From positions 1 to 38,177 of the IMG/VR virus record IMGVR_UViG_3300025018_000289: DNA of 38,177 nt; one strand, written 5' to 3'. The stretch comes from a virus (Duplodnaviria > Caudoviricetes). The notes beneath the pieces are model-generated. The model was not told the DNA's origin and ran no database searches. It was given only the letters and a program-made list of their open reading frames with translations. Positions 4,902-23,009 of the stretch are shown in pieces (the first letter of the stretch is position 1; every line of letters starts with the position of its first letter). The position numbers and the translations under genes are program-made.

Positions 4902-6016
4902 TAGACAGTCCTCACCCAATCCCATTCGATATCGTAATTCGTGGCGCTGGCCTTTTGCAGGACCATGCTCGTGGAGCCGCCGGTCGGCATGCTGGTAGGT
5001 GCATCGATCCACGAAAAGGTTCCGCTTGCGTTCTGCAGGATCTTCGTGCCTGTCGGTTTACTGAGTACCGCCCACGCGCTCCCATTGTGAATTATCATAT
5101 CGCCGCCAGTGCCGCTAGGGATCGACCCGGATGCATCTTCCCATGTCGCCAGCCAGCTGCCAGCCGACGAGTTTAGCGTCAACACCTGTCCGTCAGATTT
5201 CGTTCCACCGGAGCCCAATTGCGTTCCGATGCAATAGGCCATTTCCTTTGCAACAAAAACCTGATTTGCCCCGGCGGGCGCATACAGCATCACGGGGCCA
5301 ATAAATGTGTCTGTAATAGTCGTGATGTTTGAGTCAATCAGGCTGGCGGTCATCCGGAGATAAGTACTGAAGGTGTTGGCTGTATCATTCCAGCGCACAA
5401 AGCCCGTACCTACTCCCTCAAGCACATCGTAGATATCGGATGGACCATCCGCCCAGCTCGCGACCGATCCGTCTGTTGTCAGGAACTTTCCGCTATTGCC
5501 AGTTTGAGCGGGAAGCTGATCCGGGATCTCGGCCCACGCAGGAACGCCCGAAACGATCGACAATACTGTTCCCTCAGCTCCAACGCCTCTTAACTGCCAT
5601 TCACCAGCGGTATTGTTCCACACCAGCAACTGCCCCTCGGCTGAGCCGTTACCTAACTGTTTGATCGCCTCCCAGCTGGCCGCTGTGCCGTTTGTCGTCA
5701 GAAATTTGCCGTCATGCCCCGATTGTGCGGGCAGCACCGACGCAAGCTCCTGCCATGTCGGAGAGTCAGTACCATTTGATACCAGCGCAAAACCGTCAGT
5801 AGACGCGTCGTGAGGAGGGATTGTTTCGAGCTCAAGCGACGGCAAGTTGACTATAACCTGCCATGGATTCGCCTCACTGGGCGCTGCTGTTTTTTCGATC
5901 AGGCAATTAACGCCGCCGATATTGTTGAGAATGGCCGAAACGGTCTCAAACCATTCGAGCGGGATCTGGGTGATCGGACCGCCCGGCGCAAACTTCTCCT
6001 GTAGAGGCCACGTCAT
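4901..6016 (-). CDS. Tail fibre-like protein with repeated LPAQxGxxGKFLTT(N/D)GxxASW units; start at MTWPLQ (6016)
   Basis: Two copies of the repeat, typical of phage fibre shafts; lies downstream of the tape measure gene. Confidence 0.7.
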   Translation of the reverse strand: MTWPLQEKFAPGGPITQIPLEWFETVSAILNNIGGVNCLIEKTAAPSEANPWQVIVNLPSLELETIPPHDASTDGFALVSNGTDSPTWQELASVLPAQSGHDGKFLTTNGTAASWEAIKQLGNGSAEGQLLVWNNTAGEWQLRGVGAEGTVLSIVSGVPAWAEIPDQLPAQTGNSGKFLTTDGSVASWADGPSDIYDVLEGVGTGFVRWNDTANTFSTYLRMTASLIDSNITTITDTFIGPVMLYAPAGANQVFVAKEMAYCIGTQLGSGGTKSDGQVLTLNSSAGSWLATWEDASGSIPSGTGGDMIIHNGSAWAVLSKPTGTKILQNASGTFSWIDAPTSMPTGGSTSMVLQKASATNYDIEWDWVRTV

Positions 6017-6017
6017 T

Positions 6018-6311
6018 TTAAGCCCACGCCCCTTTGACATCATACGTCGCGGTCACGGAGTACGCGCCTGCGTCATTCTGCCGGTCCGCATGCACGTCTG
6101 TTATGTTGGCTGCTGAGCTCAAAGAGGCGGCCAGTGCCTCGGCGACCGCCTGAGTCATCGCGGAATAGAATTGCGTGTAGATTGTGCGGGATCGCGTCAA
6201 TTCGCCTGTCACGTAAAATTGCCCCTCAAAGAAGTAACCGGTCCAGCGCCTTTCGGTGATGTACTTCTTTGTCGTTGTCCACGGAGTTGGTGCTGCTGTT
6301 AACCAGGCCAT
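6018..6311 (-). CDS. Small tail protein (distal-tail position)
   Basis: Immediately after the tape measure gene, TAATG-coupled. Confidence 0.6.
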   Translation of the reverse strand: MAWLTAAPTPWTTTKKYITERRWTGYFFEGQFYVTGELTRSRTIYTQFYSAMTQAVAEALAASLSSAANITDVHADRQNDAGAYSVTATYDVKGAWA

Positions 6312-7975
6312 TATTTCATCCTCATAAGTTCTTCGAGCAGCTTCCTTGTTGCCGCCGTGTTTTCTGCGATCTCCCCCAAAGCTTTCTGCGCTGCTTCCTT
6401 CTCTTTCTCCGCATTCATCACGCGCTGAGCCGCCTGCTCCTGATCCGTGAGCTGCATTCCCGCCGCAACCTTGAACCCGACGCGCTCCTTGTCTTTTGCG
6501 AACTGGTCCCGCATAGCCTTGTCCTGCGCTTCCGCCTCTTTGCGCTGTTTGCGCAGTTCGGGATCTTTGTATTCCGCCCAGGCCTGAGATGCCGCCTGCT
6601 CTGCGCGAGACAGACGATCCTGCTGCTTTGACTGCTCGTCGCCCAGTTGCGAGATTGCGGCCCGCTTCAGGTTCTTTTCCTCTTCGACCAGCGCCCTCAT
6701 GTCCTTGGCACGCTGGTCAGCTAACTCCTTGTCAGCTTTCTCTTGAGCCTTCTTCGCTTCCTCGGCTAATTTAGCGGCGGTCTTTTCGTCTTTCTGCGCC
6801 TGTGCTAGCTTCAGGTCTTTGGTTCTAGCCTGTTCCTCAGTTATCTTTTCATCCTCGGCCTTCTTGGCTGCCTGCGCATTCTCCTCTTTGGCAGCTGCAC
6901 GGATCTTGCTGGCTCTCTCGCCAGTGTAAGACTCCTTTGCGGTCGTTTTGGCCACTCCCCATGCGTCTTTAAGCCCCATTCCTGTTGTTAACGCACCCGC
7001 ACCCGCCATGGCACCTTTGATAGCGGCAATCTGGGCCTTGTTCACTGTCATCGCGGTATCAACTGTGAGTTTAGCGCCAGACCATTTGTATGCAAATTTC
7101 AACCCCTTAGAGACGGTCTGGATTGTAATGGCAAGGTCTTCAAGCGACGTTTTTACCTGATCCGCCCATACCTCAATGCTGCCGTTCTCTTTCAGTTCTT
7201 CCATCATCTTGATCAGTAGTTTGATCTCGTTCTTTGCGATATCTTCAAAGGATTTGCCAAACTCAGCCAGCGTTAGATTCCAGTTATCCTTCATAGTCGA
7301 AAACAAGCCCTCGCCCGTAGTGGACAACTCTTCCATGCCGCCCTTATACTTCTCCATAGACTCTTGGAGCTTAGCCCACACCTCTGCGTTAGTCGCGCCT
7401 TCAGCCTGCAACTTTTCCATCTCGGCGCGCACATCAGGAGTAATGATGCCCAGCTCCATGAGGCGCTGCGCCGCTTCGCCGAACGGTCGCCCTGATTTGA
7501 TGGCGCCGTAAGCACGTCCGACCCATGTGGCCAGCTCGCCTATGTTTGCCCCAGTCGCAGTGGCGGCATCACCGACTAACTCAAGGGACTCTTTTGCCCC
7601 CATGACTCCGTTAGTCATCACGATCAGCGTGCGCGATGCCTGAGCGATATCTCCGAATTCAAGCGGAGTACTAGCAGAGAAGTTTTTCAATTCCGCGATA
7701 TGCTGCTTTGCCTTCTCCAGGCTCCCGAACAGTACTTTGAACTGCACCTCATACCGCTCAAACTCAAAGGCTGACTTGATGGAGCTGGTAAACAGTTTCA
7801 GCGCGCCCGCGACACCAGCTGTGACGCCAATAATCCTGGCCATGCTGCCCATCATGCTCTTGATGCTGCCGCCAACTTTACCAGCCAAGCCTTGGAAGTT
7901 CTGACGGACCTTGCTGAGGCCGGCCTTAGTGGAATCTTTGGCCCTTATGATAAATTCTAGGATCTTGCTACCCAC
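6311..7975 (-). CDS. Tail tape measure protein
   Basis: LEFIIRAKDST start, tape-measure motif (FSASTPLEFGDIAQASRTL...LVGDAATATG), long Ala/Lys-rich helical body, AGGAGG RBS upstream. Confidence 0.9.
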   Translation of the reverse strand: MGSKILEFIIRAKDSTKAGLSKVRQNFQGLAGKVGGSIKSMMGSMARIIGVTAGVAGALKLFTSSIKSAFEFERYEVQFKVLFGSLEKAKQHIAELKNFSASTPLEFGDIAQASRTLIVMTNGVMGAKESLELVGDAATATGANIGELATWVGRAYGAIKSGRPFGEAAQRLMELGIITPDVRAEMEKLQAEGATNAEVWAKLQESMEKYKGGMEELSTTGEGLFSTMKDNWNLTLAEFGKSFEDIAKNEIKLLIKMMEELKENGSIEVWADQVKTSLEDLAITIQTVSKGLKFAYKWSGAKLTVDTAMTVNKAQIAAIKGAMAGAGALTTGMGLKDAWGVAKTTAKESYTGERASKIRAAAKEENAQAAKKAEDEKITEEQARTKDLKLAQAQKDEKTAAKLAEEAKKAQEKADKELADQRAKDMRALVEEEKNLKRAAISQLGDEQSKQQDRLSRAEQAASQAWAEYKDPELRKQRKEAEAQDKAMRDQFAKDKERVGFKVAAGMQLTDQEQAAQRVMNAEKEKEAAQKALGEIAENTAATRKLLEELMRMK

Positions 7976-9765: not shown

Positions 9766-10203
9766 TCACAGACGGCCGCCTGTGCTGAACACAAGTTCGC
9801 ACTGCATGTTCAGCGTCCATGCCAGCACCTTTTTGGCTTCGTTCGCTACCGGCACGAAATCCGCTTGCGGCTCAGGGAAGCCCCCCATTTTGATGCGGAA
9901 ATTCTGAACATTGCCGCTGTTCAGGATTGGCAGCGCCTTGACGATCTGCATACTGAAGACGAGCGCATGCGGGCGCTGCGCGAAAGCTGCCTCGATGCGT
10001 GCAGCTATATGAACCGAAACCACATCCGGTGCCCAAGTCGTCTGTTCGTTGCCGCCAGGTCCACCAGTATAGAGAGCCCAAGCATTTACTATTGGAGGTA
10101 TATATCCCCGAAAGGCCTGCTTGCCTTCAACGCTGCCGGTCGCCTTGCAAAGCGCATTAAATACCGTGCTTTCCGCCTCAACCCATGCATTGTCAAAGTT
10201 CAT
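9766..10203 (-). CDS. Putative tail terminator / tail completion protein
   Basis: Size and position before the tail tube gene. Confidence 0.55.
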   Translation of the reverse strand: MNFDNAWVEAESTVFNALCKATGSVEGKQAFRGYIPPIVNAWALYTGGPGGNEQTTWAPDVVSVHIAARIEAAFAQRPHALVFSMQIVKALPILNSGNVQNFRIKMGGFPEPQADFVPVANEAKKVLAWTLNMQCELVFSTGGRL

Positions 10204-10726
10204 ACCAGCCCGCCCTCCTATGTTCTGCTTTGATGATGTCGAGAATCTTGCCTTCGTTGTCCACTATCGCCCGCTTAATGAACTTGTCGTCAGCCCTTGC
10301 GCCCTTTGCTATGGTACCGGGCCCGCGATTGCGCCAACTCTTCCCTTTTGCGTCATGGATCCGGCCAGCGTACTTTCCGGCCGCCGAATTCGAAGCGACA
10401 AAGATCCGGGCTGAGTCTGATGTGACCTCGCGCTCGATGGAGCGTTCCAGGCCGCCAGGGGAGGGCCTGTAAACGGTGCGATCTTTTGCGATCTTAAATA
10501 ATCGACCATCCTTGCCCTTTTTCCAGCCTCGTCTACCTTTTGTTTTTCTGGCTTTATTGAGTAATGATGCGCTAGGGGACTTAGGCGCATTCTTCTTGGC
10601 TTCACGCTGCACCAGGATGCCGATCGCCCTCAACGCCCGCAATGATGCTGCAGGGCCGTCTTTTGCGACTCGGTTGAGGGTCTGCAGGGCTTCTCTGACG
10701 CCTTTGAGTTCTATTGCCACGTCCAT
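10193..10726 (-). CDS. HK97 gp10-like neck/tail completion protein
   Basis: VAIELKGV..A start, REAKKNAP, GGLERSI, YAGRIHD and FIKRAI motifs. Confidence 0.8.
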   Translation of the reverse strand: MDVAIELKGVREALQTLNRVAKDGPAASLRALRAIGILVQREAKKNAPKSPSASLLNKARKTKGRRGWKKGKDGRLFKIAKDRTVYRPSPGGLERSIEREVTSDSARIFVASNSAAGKYAGRIHDAKGKSWRNRGPGTIAKGARADDKFIKRAIVDNEGKILDIIKAEHRRAGWYEL

Positions 10727-10746
10727 GACAATGGCCGGAAGATAAA
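10727..10746 (-). promoter_or_regulatory. Putative late promoter motif, copy 3 (TTTA-TCTTCC-GGCCAT-TGTC-ATG)
   Basis: Abuts the ATG at 10726. Confidence 0.7.
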
Positions 10747-10751
10747 GGCGC

Positions 10752-10780
10752 TTGACCCGGCATCAGTTGATTTGTAGGCT
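10752..10780 (+). promoter_or_regulatory. Sigma70-type promoter TTGACC-N17-TAGGCT driving a plus-strand sRNA
   Basis: -35 at 10752-10757, 17-nt spacer, -10 at 10775-10780. Confidence 0.7.
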
Positions 10781-10786
10781 ATTCAT

Positions 10787-10863
10787 AGATGCTGTAAGGG
10801 TTCTGGGTGTGGATCGTCCCTGCAGCTAGACGGATCGGGCACTCACGACCACCGTCTACTTTT
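10787..10863 (+). ncRNA. Candidate ~75-nt structured sRNA convergent with the MuF-toxin gene (putative RNA antitoxin)
   Basis: Stem 1 at 10791-10800/10818-10826. Stem 2 TAGACGG/CCGTCTA at 10827-33/10852-58, followed by CTTTT. Loop complementarity TGGGTGT (10804-10) with GCACTCA (10839-45). Confidence 0.6.
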
Positions 10864-12451
10864 CCTCTGGCCAGGACAGCCAATTCCTAATGTTTCGCCG
10901 TGTTGATACCGGCAACCATGACGCAACGGTTCCTGATATCCCAACAAAAGCAACAACGCCGTGTTTGCCATCGGCTTCTATGTCAGTATAAGCGCGGGTT
11001 CCGCCAGGACGCACTCGCACGGTGCCCGTTTTGACAGCCTTGATAGCAGAGTTGATAGCAGCAAACCTGCCATCCATATCCTTGGTTGTTTTGTTTGCCT
11101 TTTCCCAATGCGCGACAGTTCTGCTACTAAAAACAACATTCCGCCCGCGAGAGTCACGAATGGTGCCGATTTCGTCAAGGGCGGTTTTTGCTGTTGTAAA
11201 CCTTATTTGCCGCCCGATCTCTTCAGGCTTGATATTATCGCGGTCAATCTTGATTACGCCACCCAGCGAGCTCTTGCGATTTGATGCAATTTGACCAGTA
11301 GCTAAATCGCCTTTCTTTGCATATTCGAAGCGAGGAATCTTATCCATGGGCAGCCGATCCAGTACTGCTGGCGGTATCTTGTCGATTTCGCCGGCATGTT
11401 CTCCGATAAGGCCTGCGCTTAACTCCCGCTTGATCTTGTCCCGCTTGAGGTCCCGCTCGGCATCTTTCGCGTTCATCCCCGCATCGCGCTTGCCTTGTAT
11501 CCGGATGTCGTCATTGTATTTCTGGACCTGCTTAGGATCCGTCCAGTCCGCACCTGGCTGCTTTCGTTGCCTGTCGATCTCTGGTCCATCAATCTCCGGA
11601 ATTACCGCTTCCAGATTGCACCCGCAATTCGGATGTCCCCAGCCGCCATCGTAGGCCTGCGAGAGGCTGGGGTAGTGGGTCCGCTGTTTCCCGCTGATAT
11701 CAACGATCAGCCCAGCCCAGGCCCTGCAATACTGACACGGTTCACCATCGTCCACGATCCGGGCCAGCTCGTAGCCCTCCTTTACAATACCGTCCACATA
11801 GCTTTCATTGGATACGCGCTGGAAGGTAGTGCGTGTAAGCATGTTTAAATAGTCTGCGTTTGCCCAGGGACGCCCCGTAGCATCGACAAACCTGTCGCTC
11901 CGCAGATTCTTCGCGAGCCGATCCCATCGCTCCTGCAGCTTCTTGTGTGTCTCTCTAGCTGTCCATCCCTCTATGGTCTGCTGTCGGAACGTGTCCAGGA
12001 AGGCTGATCTCAGATTGCGGAGGTCAGAACCAGTCATCTGCTGCGTGAAGACGCCAGCCAGATTCTTCGTATTCTTACCGTGGACTATCTCCCAGTATCG
12101 CTTGACTAGGCGTCGGTCGAATGCGACCAGGCTGCCGACCTTTGCGCCGGCGGCTTTTAGATCCTTTTTTGCCTGGCTGTGCCACTCAATTGCAGTCTGC
12201 TCAACCTGATCCTTCATCCAGGAGTCAATGCCAGCTGCAGCTAAATCGTAGACGCCGGTCACTTCGGTATACAGGGCATTCCTGGCCGCCGCACTGGTAG
12301 CTGACTTGGTTCGGGCTGCCACCGCCTCAATCTTGGCCGCCACGGCCTGCTGAGCGCGTTTAAGGCGTGTTCTGAGCTCTACCGTAGCCATGACCTCGCG
12401 GCGCTTAAGCTTCGCTATAAGCTCTGCTGGCGTTGGTTTCTTGCGGGGCAT
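10856..12451 (-). CDS. MuF / phage minor capsid protein with C-terminal extension, probably a BECR-fold (PBECR-like) RNase toxin domain
   Basis: FVDATGRPW...Y..ML.RT, PCQYC, SL..A...G.GHPNCGC motifs. C-terminal ~110 aa reads IRDSRGRNVVFSSRTVAHW...DMDGRF..I..A..AV...RAY...GVVAFV....VASW. Confidence 0.75.
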   Translation of the reverse strand: MPRKKPTPAELIAKLKRREVMATVELRTRLKRAQQAVAAKIEAVAARTKSATSAAARNALYTEVTGVYDLAAAGIDSWMKDQVEQTAIEWHSQAKKDLKAAGAKVGSLVAFDRRLVKRYWEIVHGKNTKNLAGVFTQQMTGSDLRNLRSAFLDTFRQQTIEGWTARETHKKLQERWDRLAKNLRSDRFVDATGRPWANADYLNMLTRTTFQRVSNESYVDGIVKEGYELARIVDDGEPCQYCRAWAGLIVDISGKQRTHYPSLSQAYDGGWGHPNCGCNLEAVIPEIDGPEIDRQRKQPGADWTDPKQVQKYNDDIRIQGKRDAGMNAKDAERDLKRDKIKRELSAGLIGEHAGEIDKIPPAVLDRLPMDKIPRFEYAKKGDLATGQIASNRKSSLGGVIKIDRDNIKPEEIGRQIRFTTAKTALDEIGTIRDSRGRNVVFSSRTVAHWEKANKTTKDMDGRFAAINSAIKAVKTGTVRVRPGGTRAYTDIEADGKHGVVAFVGISGTVASWLPVSTRRNIRNWLSWPEEK

Positions 12452-19201: not shown

Positions 19202-19221
19202 GTGAATGGCCGAGACATCAA
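19202..19221 (-). promoter_or_regulatory. Putative late promoter motif, copy 7 (TTGA-TGTCTC-GGCCAT-TCAC-ATG)
   Basis: Abuts the terS ATG and overlaps the recombinase stop codon. Confidence 0.7.
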
Positions 19222-20753
19222 GCAGCCGCAAGCAGCTTCGAAACGGCACGAGCCTCAGAAATGAAGCAAATCAATGTGGTTCGAAGATTTTGAGGTGGTA
19301 CCCCGGAGATTTGCTGGTTCGAATCGGTCATCTGAGCCAAGTGGGCTATAAGGCCGCTGTCTGCGCGAGAGACCATGGCGCCATCCTTGGTGAGCGTGAT
19401 AGGGCCTCCGAATACGCCGTCAACAAACTTTCGGCGCTGGTCGGCGGCCATACCCCAGAAGACCCGAGGCAGATCCGAGAAGAGCTTTTCAGCGAATCCG
19501 AGCGCGGCCTCAGCGTCAAGCTCGTCGATCTGCGAATCGTTTGCCTTGGTCCGCTCCACTGCGAGCTGCATCTCGAAATCGCTTGTTTTGCGCTTGTATG
19601 CCTCGACCGAGATCCCGCCGGACAAGTACAGGTCGAGCAGCTTCTCGATCTGCTGCTCAAGCTTCTGGACGTTAAGCCTTGCGCGTTCGGCGTTGACAAT
19701 GGCATCAGCCTGCAGATCGCGCCACACGTCGCAGACCATCAGCTTCAGGATTGGTAGCAGTTCCGCGCACTCGCGAGCGGAGGCGGCAAGATGCTCGTTA
19801 AACAGCTCCTCGACCGCATCCTGCCTTGCCCTGGTCCCGCACGAGCAGTGATAGTAGCTGTACTGTTTCTGCTTCCGGCCGATCGATGTCGACGCAGATA
19901 GAAGCTTCCCGCATTCGCACTGCAGCGCGCCGCGCAGAGGGTAGGAGTCGGTAGGAATGGACCTCTGAACCTTGCCATTGCCCGCTAGAACAGACTGAAC
20001 CTTCTGGAAGACCCCATCCGAGATTATCCCGTCGAACACAGCCCGCACAGGGCGATGATCGGTTAAACTACTCTTGACGATCCCGATGTACACCGGATTG
20101 CGCAGGATCTTATGCAGCGACTGCCGCCCGATCTTGCGCCCGAGTTGCCCGGAAAGCCATACGGCCGCCGCGCCGGTTGTTGTGTCGCCCTCAGCAACCT
20201 TGCTGAAAAGCCGCCGAACGATAAGGGCCTGATCCGGACAAGGCTCCAGCGCTGCCAGCCCCTTAACCTTGGCCGTCCTGTACCCGATCGGAGGCGTAGT
20301 GGTCCATCCGCCGGCTGCGGCCACTGCCCGCATGCCTGATTTCGTGCGCTCAGCCCGCACATCGTTGTCGAACTGCGCTATCCCGGCCAGCATCGTGGTA
20401 AGTAACTTGCCTGCAGGGGAGTCGCTCAGCGGCTCGGTTACGCTCTTAACCTCGACGCCCGCCTTGGCCAGTACGGCCTGAAATACCGCGTGATCGTAGG
20501 AGTTGCGCGCGAATCGATCGAGCTTCCAGACCACCGCAGCGTCTACCGGGTTGGCGTTGCAGTATGCCACCATAGCCTGAAACTGAGGCCGATCCGCTGT
20601 CTTGGCTGATTCGCCTTTGTCGACGAAGACAGCCGCCACGCGATGACCCTCACGCTCACAGAACTGGCGACAATCACGCTCCTGCTGGTCTAAGCTGGTT
20701 CCCTGAACCTGCTCAAGACTGGAGACGCGGCAATATATCACTGCGCTTTTTAT
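19218..20753 (-). CDS. Large serine recombinase (integrase); probable non-canonical ATA start at 20753 (GTG at 20741 is the alternative)
   Basis: IYCRVSS catalytic Ser, DKGESAK..DRP, KLDRFARN, LRNPVYIG recombinase domain, C.CG...YY.C.C zinc ribbon, coiled coil. Confidence 0.92.
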   Translation of the reverse strand: MKSAVIYCRVSSLEQVQGTSLDQQERDCRQFCEREGHRVAAVFVDKGESAKTADRPQFQAMVAYCNANPVDAAVVWKLDRFARNSYDHAVFQAVLAKAGVEVKSVTEPLSDSPAGKLLTTMLAGIAQFDNDVRAERTKSGMRAVAAAGGWTTTPPIGYRTAKVKGLAALEPCPDQALIVRRLFSKVAEGDTTTGAAAVWLSGQLGRKIGRQSLHKILRNPVYIGIVKSSLTDHRPVRAVFDGIISDGVFQKVQSVLAGNGKVQRSIPTDSYPLRGALQCECGKLLSASTSIGRKQKQYSYYHCSCGTRARQDAVEELFNEHLAASARECAELLPILKLMVCDVWRDLQADAIVNAERARLNVQKLEQQIEKLLDLYLSGGISVEAYKRKTSDFEMQLAVERTKANDSQIDELDAEAALGFAEKLFSDLPRVFWGMAADQRRKFVDGVFGGPITLTKDGAMVSRADSGLIAHLAQMTDSNQQISGVPPQNLRTTLICFISEARAVSKLLAAA

Positions 20754-21628: not shown

Positions 21629-22585
21629 TTATTCAGACACGTGGATTACAGACACGCCATCGACCCCGTCAAGCGCTGCCTTGAGCAGAATTAAAGTCGC
21701 TTTGTCACGAACACCAACAGTGATCAGCTCGTCAGAACGAGAAACATAACCAACGACAAGATCGCGCTGCCTGCTGGGCGGGCATGGTCCACCATTTTGT
21801 GAAGGCCATTCGCATAAGGCGCACTGAACGGTGAGTCCAGCCTTACACAGCACGCGAACACTGATGCCCTCCTTGCACGGCGCGCTTATCTCGGGCTCAC
21901 TGGGCTCCTCCGCTACAGCCTCCGCAGCCTCGATCTTGTCCAGGAACACCTCACGCGGCTCCGATCCGTTAGGCGGCCCAATAATCCCTCGTTCATCGAG
22001 GATGTCCATCAGCCTAGCCGCCCGAGTGAACCCGATCCTGAGCCTACGCTGAAGCGCACTGGTTGAGGCTCTGTGCGTCTCCTTGACGATGGATACAGCC
22101 TGCTCGATGTCAGCCTCAGAGACGCCGTCTGGCTTCACCAGCTGCACTGTGACGGGCGCTGAGGGTAGGGCAGTGCCACTTGCTTGCGCCTTTGCTACCA
22201 GGTGCCCCGGTACCGCGTGCAGCTTCTTGACTTCTGATCGGGTCATGTCCGGCCTGATAATGCCCTGAGTGATGCCTCGCTCAAATTCGTCGTCATGCAG
22301 CTCACTGAGCTTGTACAGCGTGTACCAAGAGGGCGGCAAAAGCGAAGCATGCTTCGGGTCTGACAGCCTTGCATCGCCAGTAAGCGCCATCATCATCTGC
22401 GCTGTTCGGGGCGAGAAGGGCAGCTCGTTTGTGACCATCGCCGTGAATTCGCCATGCTTGAGCTTGTCTTTTGCCTCAGCGAGGATCCTGCCGGTCTCCA
22501 TGATCGCTTCGACGCTTTGCCGAAACGTTGTCCGGATCCGTTCGGCGTACTCGGACCCCCGTGTTGCTGTCAATTCAGTCGTCAT
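21629..22585 (-). CDS. DUF3102-like domain fused to an FtsK gamma (winged-helix) domain; start at MTTELT
   Basis: GRILAEAK..L.HGEF......F S.RTAQ..M (DUF3102-like). ASTSALQRRLRIGFTRAARLMD.L...GIIGP.NGSEPREV (FtsK gamma). AGGAGG RBS. Confidence 0.85.
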   Translation of the reverse strand: MTTELTATRGSEYAERIRTTFRQSVEAIMETGRILAEAKDKLKHGEFTAMVTNELPFSPRTAQMMMALTGDARLSDPKHASLLPPSWYTLYKLSELHDDEFERGITQGIIRPDMTRSEVKKLHAVPGHLVAKAQASGTALPSAPVTVQLVKPDGVSEADIEQAVSIVKETHRASTSALQRRLRIGFTRAARLMDILDERGIIGPPNGSEPREVFLDKIEAAEAVAEEPSEPEISAPCKEGISVRVLCKAGLTVQCALCEWPSQNGGPCPPSRQRDLVVGYVSRSDELITVGVRDKATLILLKAALDGVDGVSVIHVSE

Positions 22586-23009
22586 TCTTGTTGCCTCCTG
22601 TTGTTCGCATTTGTATGACCTCACCCAGCACTGGAAACCGTTTCAGTGCCTTCTTGAGCCTGCTGTGTACCGCCTGAACTGTGATCTTGTGCCTACTGGC
22701 AACCACGTTCAGCGGCTTATCAGGCTGTGAAAATCTAAAAGCAACGATGTCCCTGGTAATGGCTGGCAGACTCATGAACTGATCAATGAACCCAGCCAGC
22801 TTCTCGATCCGGGAGTCCATCAGGGCCATTTCTTGAGGTTGCATGGCCTCCTCAGCTTCGACCGCCTCAGACCAGTCACGGCTGACATGAGACTTGCCTT
22901 TGTGCGAGGGATCGTCTGAGAGCTTGCATGTCGAGCATGGCGTCTCTTCCCATGGCAGCCCTGTCAGGGCCGGATCCATGTTGTGTTTGCAGGCGTGACA
23001 ATCAGGCAT
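22575..23009 (-). CDS. Zn-finger plus sigma70 region-4-like HTH transcription regulator
   Basis: CxxC...CxxC N-terminus; SLPAITRDIV.FRF.....L..VA......VQAVHSRLKKALKR C-terminus. Confidence 0.7.
   Translation of the reverse strand: MPDCHACKHNMDPALTGLPWEETPCSTCKLSDDPSHKGKSHVSRDWSEAVEAEEAMQPQEMALMDSRIEKLAGFIDQFMSLPAITRDIVAFRFSQPDKPLNVVASRHKITVQAVHSRLKKALKRFPVLGEVIQMRTTGGNKNDD

Follow-up and report, generated by a model that had tools for sequence, protein, structure and literature searches.

A predicted kissing-loop RNA in the immunity slot of a MuF gene with a PBECR2-like tip

What takes the part of an immunity protein when a phage gene for a MuF virion protein ends in a toxin-like domain and is followed directly by a structural gene? 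The question is raised by a stretch of viral DNA of 38,177 bases, with an estimated completeness of 59%, the whole of which was analysed and is referred to here as the window. We think that the short gap behind its MuF gene likely encodes a small kissing-loop RNA, and that this RNA would be an antidote to a predicted RNase at the C terminus of MuF, probably by binding the nuclease. We put the probability of this reading at about 0.5.

The MuF gene and its variable tip

According to Pfam and PHROG, the minus strand of the window carries terminase, portal, capsid, MuF, neck, and tail genes, with the capsid, portal, and terminase genes upstream of MuF. A gene for a large serine recombinase (19218-20741, minus strand) lies immediately upstream of the small terminase gene and suggests that the virus is a temperate phage. 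Prophages related to it sit in genomes of Kiritimatiellia, which is therefore the likely class of its host. The MuF protein would be packaged in the virion. When it was aligned with 17 homologues, residues ~1-410 were common to all while the tips differed. The tip types include ART (by Pfam), HxH and zincin-like types (both read by eye), and the type of the window, which is found in P0002 and P0009, with P0020 as a third; papain-like and BECR tips are also present among MuF relatives. Judged from this alignment, the C-terminal tip of MuF is swappable. In P0020, residues ~275-545 form a long insertion at the HPxC motif of the MuF homologue, which we take to be intein-like.

Profile comparison relates the tip of the window protein to PBECR2. 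It was matched to a PBECR2 alignment by hhalign with a probability of 90% (E 1.6e-6), and an HMM built from the window tip, P0002, and P0009 ranked PBECR2 domains at the top among 7,226 ORFs (E ~1e-4). His448, Arg462, and Ser511 align across homologues. The positions of His448 and Ser511 match the active-site configuration described for PBECR domains, a His in the N-terminal helix plus a C-terminal Ser/Thr (Iyer et al. 2017, PMC5512222). The tip gave no direct Pfam match above the cut-off, including to the PBECR2 model PF18810, and PHROG had no name for it either; its Atlas look-alikes among PBECR2/3 stayed under 0.9. An AlphaFold model (pLDDT 82) consists of a helix followed by a meander of 4-5 strands. 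Its structural matches were weak (Z 3.5-4.2), with CdiA-CT, colicin D, colicin E5, BrnT, and RelE interspersed with unrelated helical matches, and a Foldseek search with the model returned nothing at E 0.001.

The original prediction had read this extra domain as a BECR fold. For the last ~120 residues, the profile homology argues for a PBECR2-like BECR domain with active-site-type residues intact and a predicted RNase activity. The domain was expected to span ~110 residues and is in fact ~120 residues long. We consider the tip a likely BECR RNase.

A noncoding unit in the gap

No small immunity ORF follows MuF. As had been predicted, the next gene encodes a neck protein, and the gap, estimated beforehand at ~130 bp, measures 129 bp between the two ORFs and holds no suitable ORF. 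The features that it does hold are collected in Table 1.

Table 1. Features of the MuF locus and of the predicted RNA unit (positions in the window)
Feature	Position	Strand	Basis
Neck/tail-completion protein, next gene after MuF	10193..10726	-	phrog_5, E 2e-9
Repeated motif TT(G/T)A-N6-GGCCAT, 4 nt before neck ATG; likely phage late promoter, cassette edge	10731..10746	-	repeats; relatives
Predicted sigma70-like promoter site TTGACC-N17-TAGGCT (-35 at 10752-10757, 17-nt spacer, -10 at 10775-10780), TG before -10	10752..10780	+	sequence; relatives with site at same position
Predicted noncoding RNA, ~75-80 nt, ends inferred	10787..10868	+	folding; no plus-strand ORF; no Rfam match
Hairpin 1: outer stem, 3' bulge, short inner stem; loop arm 10804-10810	10791..10826	+	folding; layout common to relatives
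Predicted 7-bp loop-loop (kissing) helix, including G-U, arms 28 nt apart	10804..10845	+	folding, shuffles, descriptor
Hairpin 2: loop arm 10839-10845; stem includes MuF stop codon; probable terminator stem	10827..10858	+	z -3.19
Short U/pyrimidine tail (4 U, 10860-10863) within last MuF codons; weak terminator tail	10860..10868	+	sequence
MuF (MuF2/Phage_min_cap2) minor head protein, variable C-terminal tip, 531 aa	10856..12451	-	Pfam PF06152, E 1e-11; PHROG minor head protein
PBECR2-like BECR-fold domain, predicted RNase; residues ~415-531; His448, Arg462, Ser511-Trp512	10859..11209	-	profile comparison

The promoter-like site, the two hairpins, and the 7 bp that their loops can form all lie where the original prediction had placed them. 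The U-tract, which was said to end on the MuF stop codon, does not; it is hairpin 2 that ends there, and the tail of 4 U sits inside the last codons. The promoter-like site matches the consensus at 8 of 12 positions. In a promoter matrix built from E. coli frequencies it scores 10.8 bits, more than any of 40 shuffles of the region. A standard scanner called neither the promoter nor the terminator of the window, and the whole window holds 12 sites of at least 9.5 bits, so that the promoter-like site by itself is not decisive.

The late-type motif was also found back to back with the -35 element, at a distance of 5 nt, as had been proposed. It recurs in the window at six minus-strand sites (19221, 17233, 14217, 10746, 9761, and 3625) versus none on the plus strand; it precedes late genes, with an ATG 4 nt after the motif in five cases, and is kept before the neck genes of relatives. 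This suggests a phage late promoter that would yield leaderless mRNAs, and a sigma70-region-4-like protein encoded at 22575-23009 is a candidate for its activator. The contig of a close relative follows the neck gene and diverges from the window at 10748, which makes the promoter-RNA unit look like part of a swappable cassette.

The folding energy of the gap as a whole is unremarkable (z -0.51); hairpin 2 alone is more stable than that (Table 1). The kissing fold is favoured by 5.8 kcal/mol in an approximate model that applies a fixed penalty; in two runs, this gain was equalled in 1 of 150 shuffles and in 0 of 60. Kissing requires an alternative inner stem in hairpin 1 that lies ~1.7 kcal/mol above the minimum, and with minimum-energy loops alone the kissing test returned p 0.52 for the window. 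A kissing-hairpin descriptor found a single match in the whole window (both strands), at 10804, a result that is partly circular since the descriptor was designed after the family RNAs had been seen. On the minus strand, an 11-bp stem could link the MuF stop region to the bases before the neck ATG (10727-10858; whole-region z -0.72).

Rfam covariance models at gathering score matched neither the window gap nor 32 related loci. A mir-92 match on the window (E 5.9) and a weak CPEB3-ribozyme match on L156, at 22.5 bits where the cut-off is 35, were dismissed as chance. Close DNA relatives of the window RNA were not found in viral contigs (searched by protein and by pattern), the fetched loci, the phage collection, plasmids, or genome contigs (searched by MuF alignment). 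Contig coverage from four DNA runs did not span hairpin 1. The sequencing runs listed included no RNA holder, which has no bearing on expression.

Recurrence among relatives

To compare relatives, the 240 nt after each stop codon were scored on the opposite strand with a threshold of at least 8. A convergent promoter-like site was present after 22 of 28 BECR tips. It followed 3 of 25 tips of other types, all three at related zincin loci, and none of the 9 MuFs that lack a tip. On the sense strand, 2 of the 28 BECR tips attained a score of 8. The enrichment at BECR tips has a Fisher p of 1e-6, uncorrected for kinship, in a sample from which duplicated loci had been removed with some near-duplicates left and to which four PBECR3 tips were added after their spacers had been seen. 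The expectation that a convergent promoter and a structured RNA accompany the tip is supported by this comparison, with specificity for BECR tips. A later search with PF18812 found 11 of 391 genomes and nine new domains, which with the addition of L081 gave ten PBECR3/polyvalent domains; eight of these score at least 10, six of them inside the coding sequence of polyvalent proteins. In the tip-less MuFs L015, L020, and L039, the gap to the neck gene is 14-19 nt. In MuFs with papain-like tips (L049 at 5938-6337, L072, and L085), we noticed by eye that a convergent promoter-like site precedes a small ORF encoded on the opposite strand; these ORFs are candidates for antisense-encoded immunity proteins. 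In L008 (5968-6090) and L029, the RNA unit is separated from the neck gene by a further noncoding segment, which bears a late motif of its own as well as a strong terminator.

The kissing gain was determined for 20 PBECR2-like RNAs. It exceeded that of every or almost every shuffle in 11 of them (the window, L076, L127, L132, L134, L137, L140, L141, L078, L131b, and L008) and was not above shuffles in the remaining 9, nor in 4 of 4 PBECR3 RNAs. Long RNAs were compared with only 4-12 shuffles each, and the search demands unbroken helices, overlooking the mismatch-bearing helices visible by eye in L075, L080, and L135. The sequences of the loop arms vary among lineages. Of 19 pairs tabulated, some of them chosen by eye, 14 have their arms 28-32 nt apart, versus 23 of 125 in shuffles. 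Over 503 kb, the descriptor, which was built from these RNAs, had 28 matches, of which 12 fell at 10 BECR cassettes. When minimum-energy loops were swapped, own loops outdid every foreign loop in just 4 of 24 cases, which leaves specificity of the loops unsupported.

The divergent RNAs could not be aligned by MAFFT. Four cultured phages located by protein search alone add to the comparison. In Thermus phage Riverbug, TTGCAC-N17-TAGAAT faces MuF and the kissing arms are 32 nt apart, with none of 30 shuffles as good. Meiothermus phage MMP7 has no good promoter by the matrix (5.5 bits), and its kissing gain was equalled by 1 of 30 shuffles. Between these two sequences, 23 of 23 pairs are kept, with five compensatory changes, one of them in the kissing helix (12 of 500 shuffles). 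Rhizobium phage RR1-B has a promoter of 10.2 bits and arms 31 nt apart (0 of 20 shuffles as good); for Rhodobacter phage RcapMu the values are 13.7 bits and 34 nt (2 of 20). The kissing architecture proposed for the window hence recurs in relatives, and in phages otherwise unrelated to it, with different loop sequences and compensatory changes. The covariation comes from Riverbug and MMP7, whereas the window RNA, whose closest tips are those of P0002, P0009, and P0020, shows no close-sequence covariation of its own.

Each domain comes with its own RNA, even where two domains occur in one genome (L158, L169). The RNA unit is missing from several domains that lack the His (L148, L151/L152, and L153/L157) and from the truncated L144. 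In the His-less domains of a gut phage, Pseudomonas phages, and Ralstonia phages, the gap is absent or contains a single hairpin. A single query yielded all the cases that lack both the His and the RNA, and they may belong to one lineage; L146 and L070 are counter-cases that lack the His yet keep the RNA. In L077 (1904-2680), L093, and L131, extra tip cassettes adjoin the main gene. Every one of them has a separate RNA and promoter-like site and resembles an orphan toxin-immunity pair.

A different predicted antisense RNA follows PBECR3-type domains (L088, L089, L092, L093, L098, L103, L104, and L110). It carries the conserved motif GUUUCGGACGUAUGG and has no Rfam match; in a pattern scan, at least 4 of 28 viral loci had the motif behind a similar domain. 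Polyvalent proteins (L081, L104, L110, L158, L159, L161, L164, and L169) have an antisense promoter-like site and RNA inside their coding sequence, right after the domain. In the proteins, this arrangement gives rise to recurring linker peptides, for instance 'HTSET' and 'IP....VN/VK'.

Possible roles of the RNA and related systems

The presence of one RNA per domain, its location in the immunity slot, the restriction to BECR tips, the conservation of shape over sequence, and the frequent loss of the RNA together with the His are best explained if the RNA neutralises the nuclease by binding it. The host sigma70 polymerase would transcribe the RNA early after DNA entry and in the lysogen. The RNA would adopt a compact loop-loop pseudoknot, and the nuclease would be blocked by this shape and not by the sequence of the loops. 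Such an RNA could protect the producing cell during late MuF synthesis as well as lysogens and newly infected cells that receive MuF with arriving virions. Speculatively, the toxin may cleave tRNA or mRNA, and an antidote that works without being translated would be well matched to it. The suggestion by Iyer et al. 2017 (PMC5512222) that PBECRs are possibly aimed at mRNA or CRISPR RNA instead of killing counts against an antidote.

Alternatively, the RNA could exert cis-antisense control, as in convergent type I systems, by pairing with late mRNA at its 3' end or through colliding transcription; leaky MuF would be lowered, and the fold would only stabilise the RNA. The original prediction called antisense silencing unlikely, and this dismissal was too quick. 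The overlap of the RNA with the MuF coding sequence is ~10 nt and further complementarity depends on the mRNA ends, but the full length of the RNA is complementary to any late mRNA running through the gap, and in the polyvalent genes L081, L158, L159, L161, L164, and L169 the equivalent of the RNA lies wholly inside the coding sequence. Hairpin 2, moreover, can fold on both strands. Even so, antisense control leaves the restriction to BECR tips, the conserved loop-loop geometry, the one RNA per domain, and the family-specific motifs unexplained, and an antisense RNA would be unable to protect against injected protein. We regard it as unlikely.

Possibly, the RNA and the domain form a ribonucleoprotein that has a different function. 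The RNA would be a partner of the domain, or its substrate or product, and might act, for example, as a decoy, a tRNA-like sponge directed against host defence, or a cofactor, the domain being non-toxic to the host. The tight linkage of domain and RNA and the conserved tertiary fold would suit any ribonucleoprotein, L146 and L070 retain the RNA despite the loss of the His, and non-lethal, RNA-binding roles have been proposed for PBECRs (PMC5512222). On the other hand, the unit occupies the immunity slot, where the papain-like tips of L049, L072, and L085 have a promoter-like site and a small ORF, and several His-less domains have lost the RNA. We think such a role improbable. That the hairpins are mere terminators or mRNA-stability elements before the late promoter, with an incidental promoter match and loop pairing, would agree with the weak folding of the region and the many promoter-like sites of the window, but seems very improbable given that the minus strand has no U-tail after either hairpin, that tip-less MuFs meet the neck gene at such short gaps, and that the promoter enrichment, the kissing statistics, and the compensatory change in the kissing helix oppose it.

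Returning to the antidote, the proposed system resembles MuF toxins in its delivery domain, and type III systems and AbiF in its proposed action, yet fails the defining gene layout of both. As in the MuF polymorphic toxins described by Jamet et al. 2017 (PMC5576092) and for Apk2 (PMC12226406), there is a MuF2 delivery domain in the head module with swappable tips and extra downstream cassettes; unlike in those accounts, the immunity slot of the window holds a predicted convergent, noncoding, structured RNA. With PBECR domains (Iyer et al. 2017, PMC5512222; Pfam PF18810, PF18812), which occur fused to MuF, portal, and polyvalent proteins and in up to 26% of polyvalent proteins, the tip shares the helix His and C-terminal Ser/Thr. 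It is too divergent for a direct Pfam match, and the description of PBECRs given there mentions no partner RNA. Like the type III systems ToxIN, CptIN, and TenpIN (PMC5086642), the window would combine an RNase with a pseudoknotted RNA. Type III antitoxins, however, are described as tandem repeats upstream of the toxin in one operon, in contrast to a single downstream, convergent RNA with its own promoter and a loop-loop fold, and the candidate toxin of the window, unlike theirs, is a BECR domain on a virion protein. The comparison supports a predicted pseudoknot of the loop-loop and not the H-type.

In AbiF/RCd22 (10.1101/2025.04.15.648962), a prophage toxin has a linked structured RNA that acts in cis and neutralises it by binding it directly, as is proposed for the window; the AbiF toxin is Abi_2/HEPN-related and not a virion protein, and the window gap has no abiF Rfam match. 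The DUF3800, drum, and skipping-rope motifs (Weinberg et al. 2017, PMC5737381) offer a parallel in that unrelated structured RNAs with 3' terminators accompany one protein domain in either orientation. They belong to another protein family, the RNAs found here have no Rfam match, and MuF is not named in the main text of that paper. In convergent type I systems the toxin is usually small and hydrophobic (PMC6563280), in contrast to a 531-residue virion protein with a soluble alpha/beta tip. In a literature search judged from listings, with subscription papers mostly outside its scope, we found nothing that links PBECR or MuF to an RNA partner, and the literature yielded no experimental test of PBECR domains. 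The Lalka phage preprint (10.64898/2026.04.20.719267), in its accessible part, reports no such RNA.

In conclusion, the comparison of sequences indicates that the promoter-RNA-nuclease module is real, recurrent, and uncatalogued, and its predicted RNA fold, two hairpins plus a kissing helix at near-constant spacing, is uncatalogued as well. If the binding model holds, the module adds a new version of RNA-antitoxin logic. More tentatively, and as a possibility that we rate below even odds, PBECR domains across phages may constitute a widespread and hitherto undescribed group of virion-delivered RNase toxins with a family-specific folded RNA as the immunity factor, expressed from a convergent host promoter even inside polyprotein coding sequence. 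The question is accessible in cultured phages, namely, Thermus phage Riverbug (T. thermophilus HB8) and RcapMu (R. capsulatus SB1003). If the antidote reading is true, RNA immunity would join the biology of polymorphic toxins and PBECR domains would gain a function. If the wider reading is also true, the antidote would be available only from intact incoming phage DNA and without translation, so that a cell that destroys this DNA would be left with the injected RNase.
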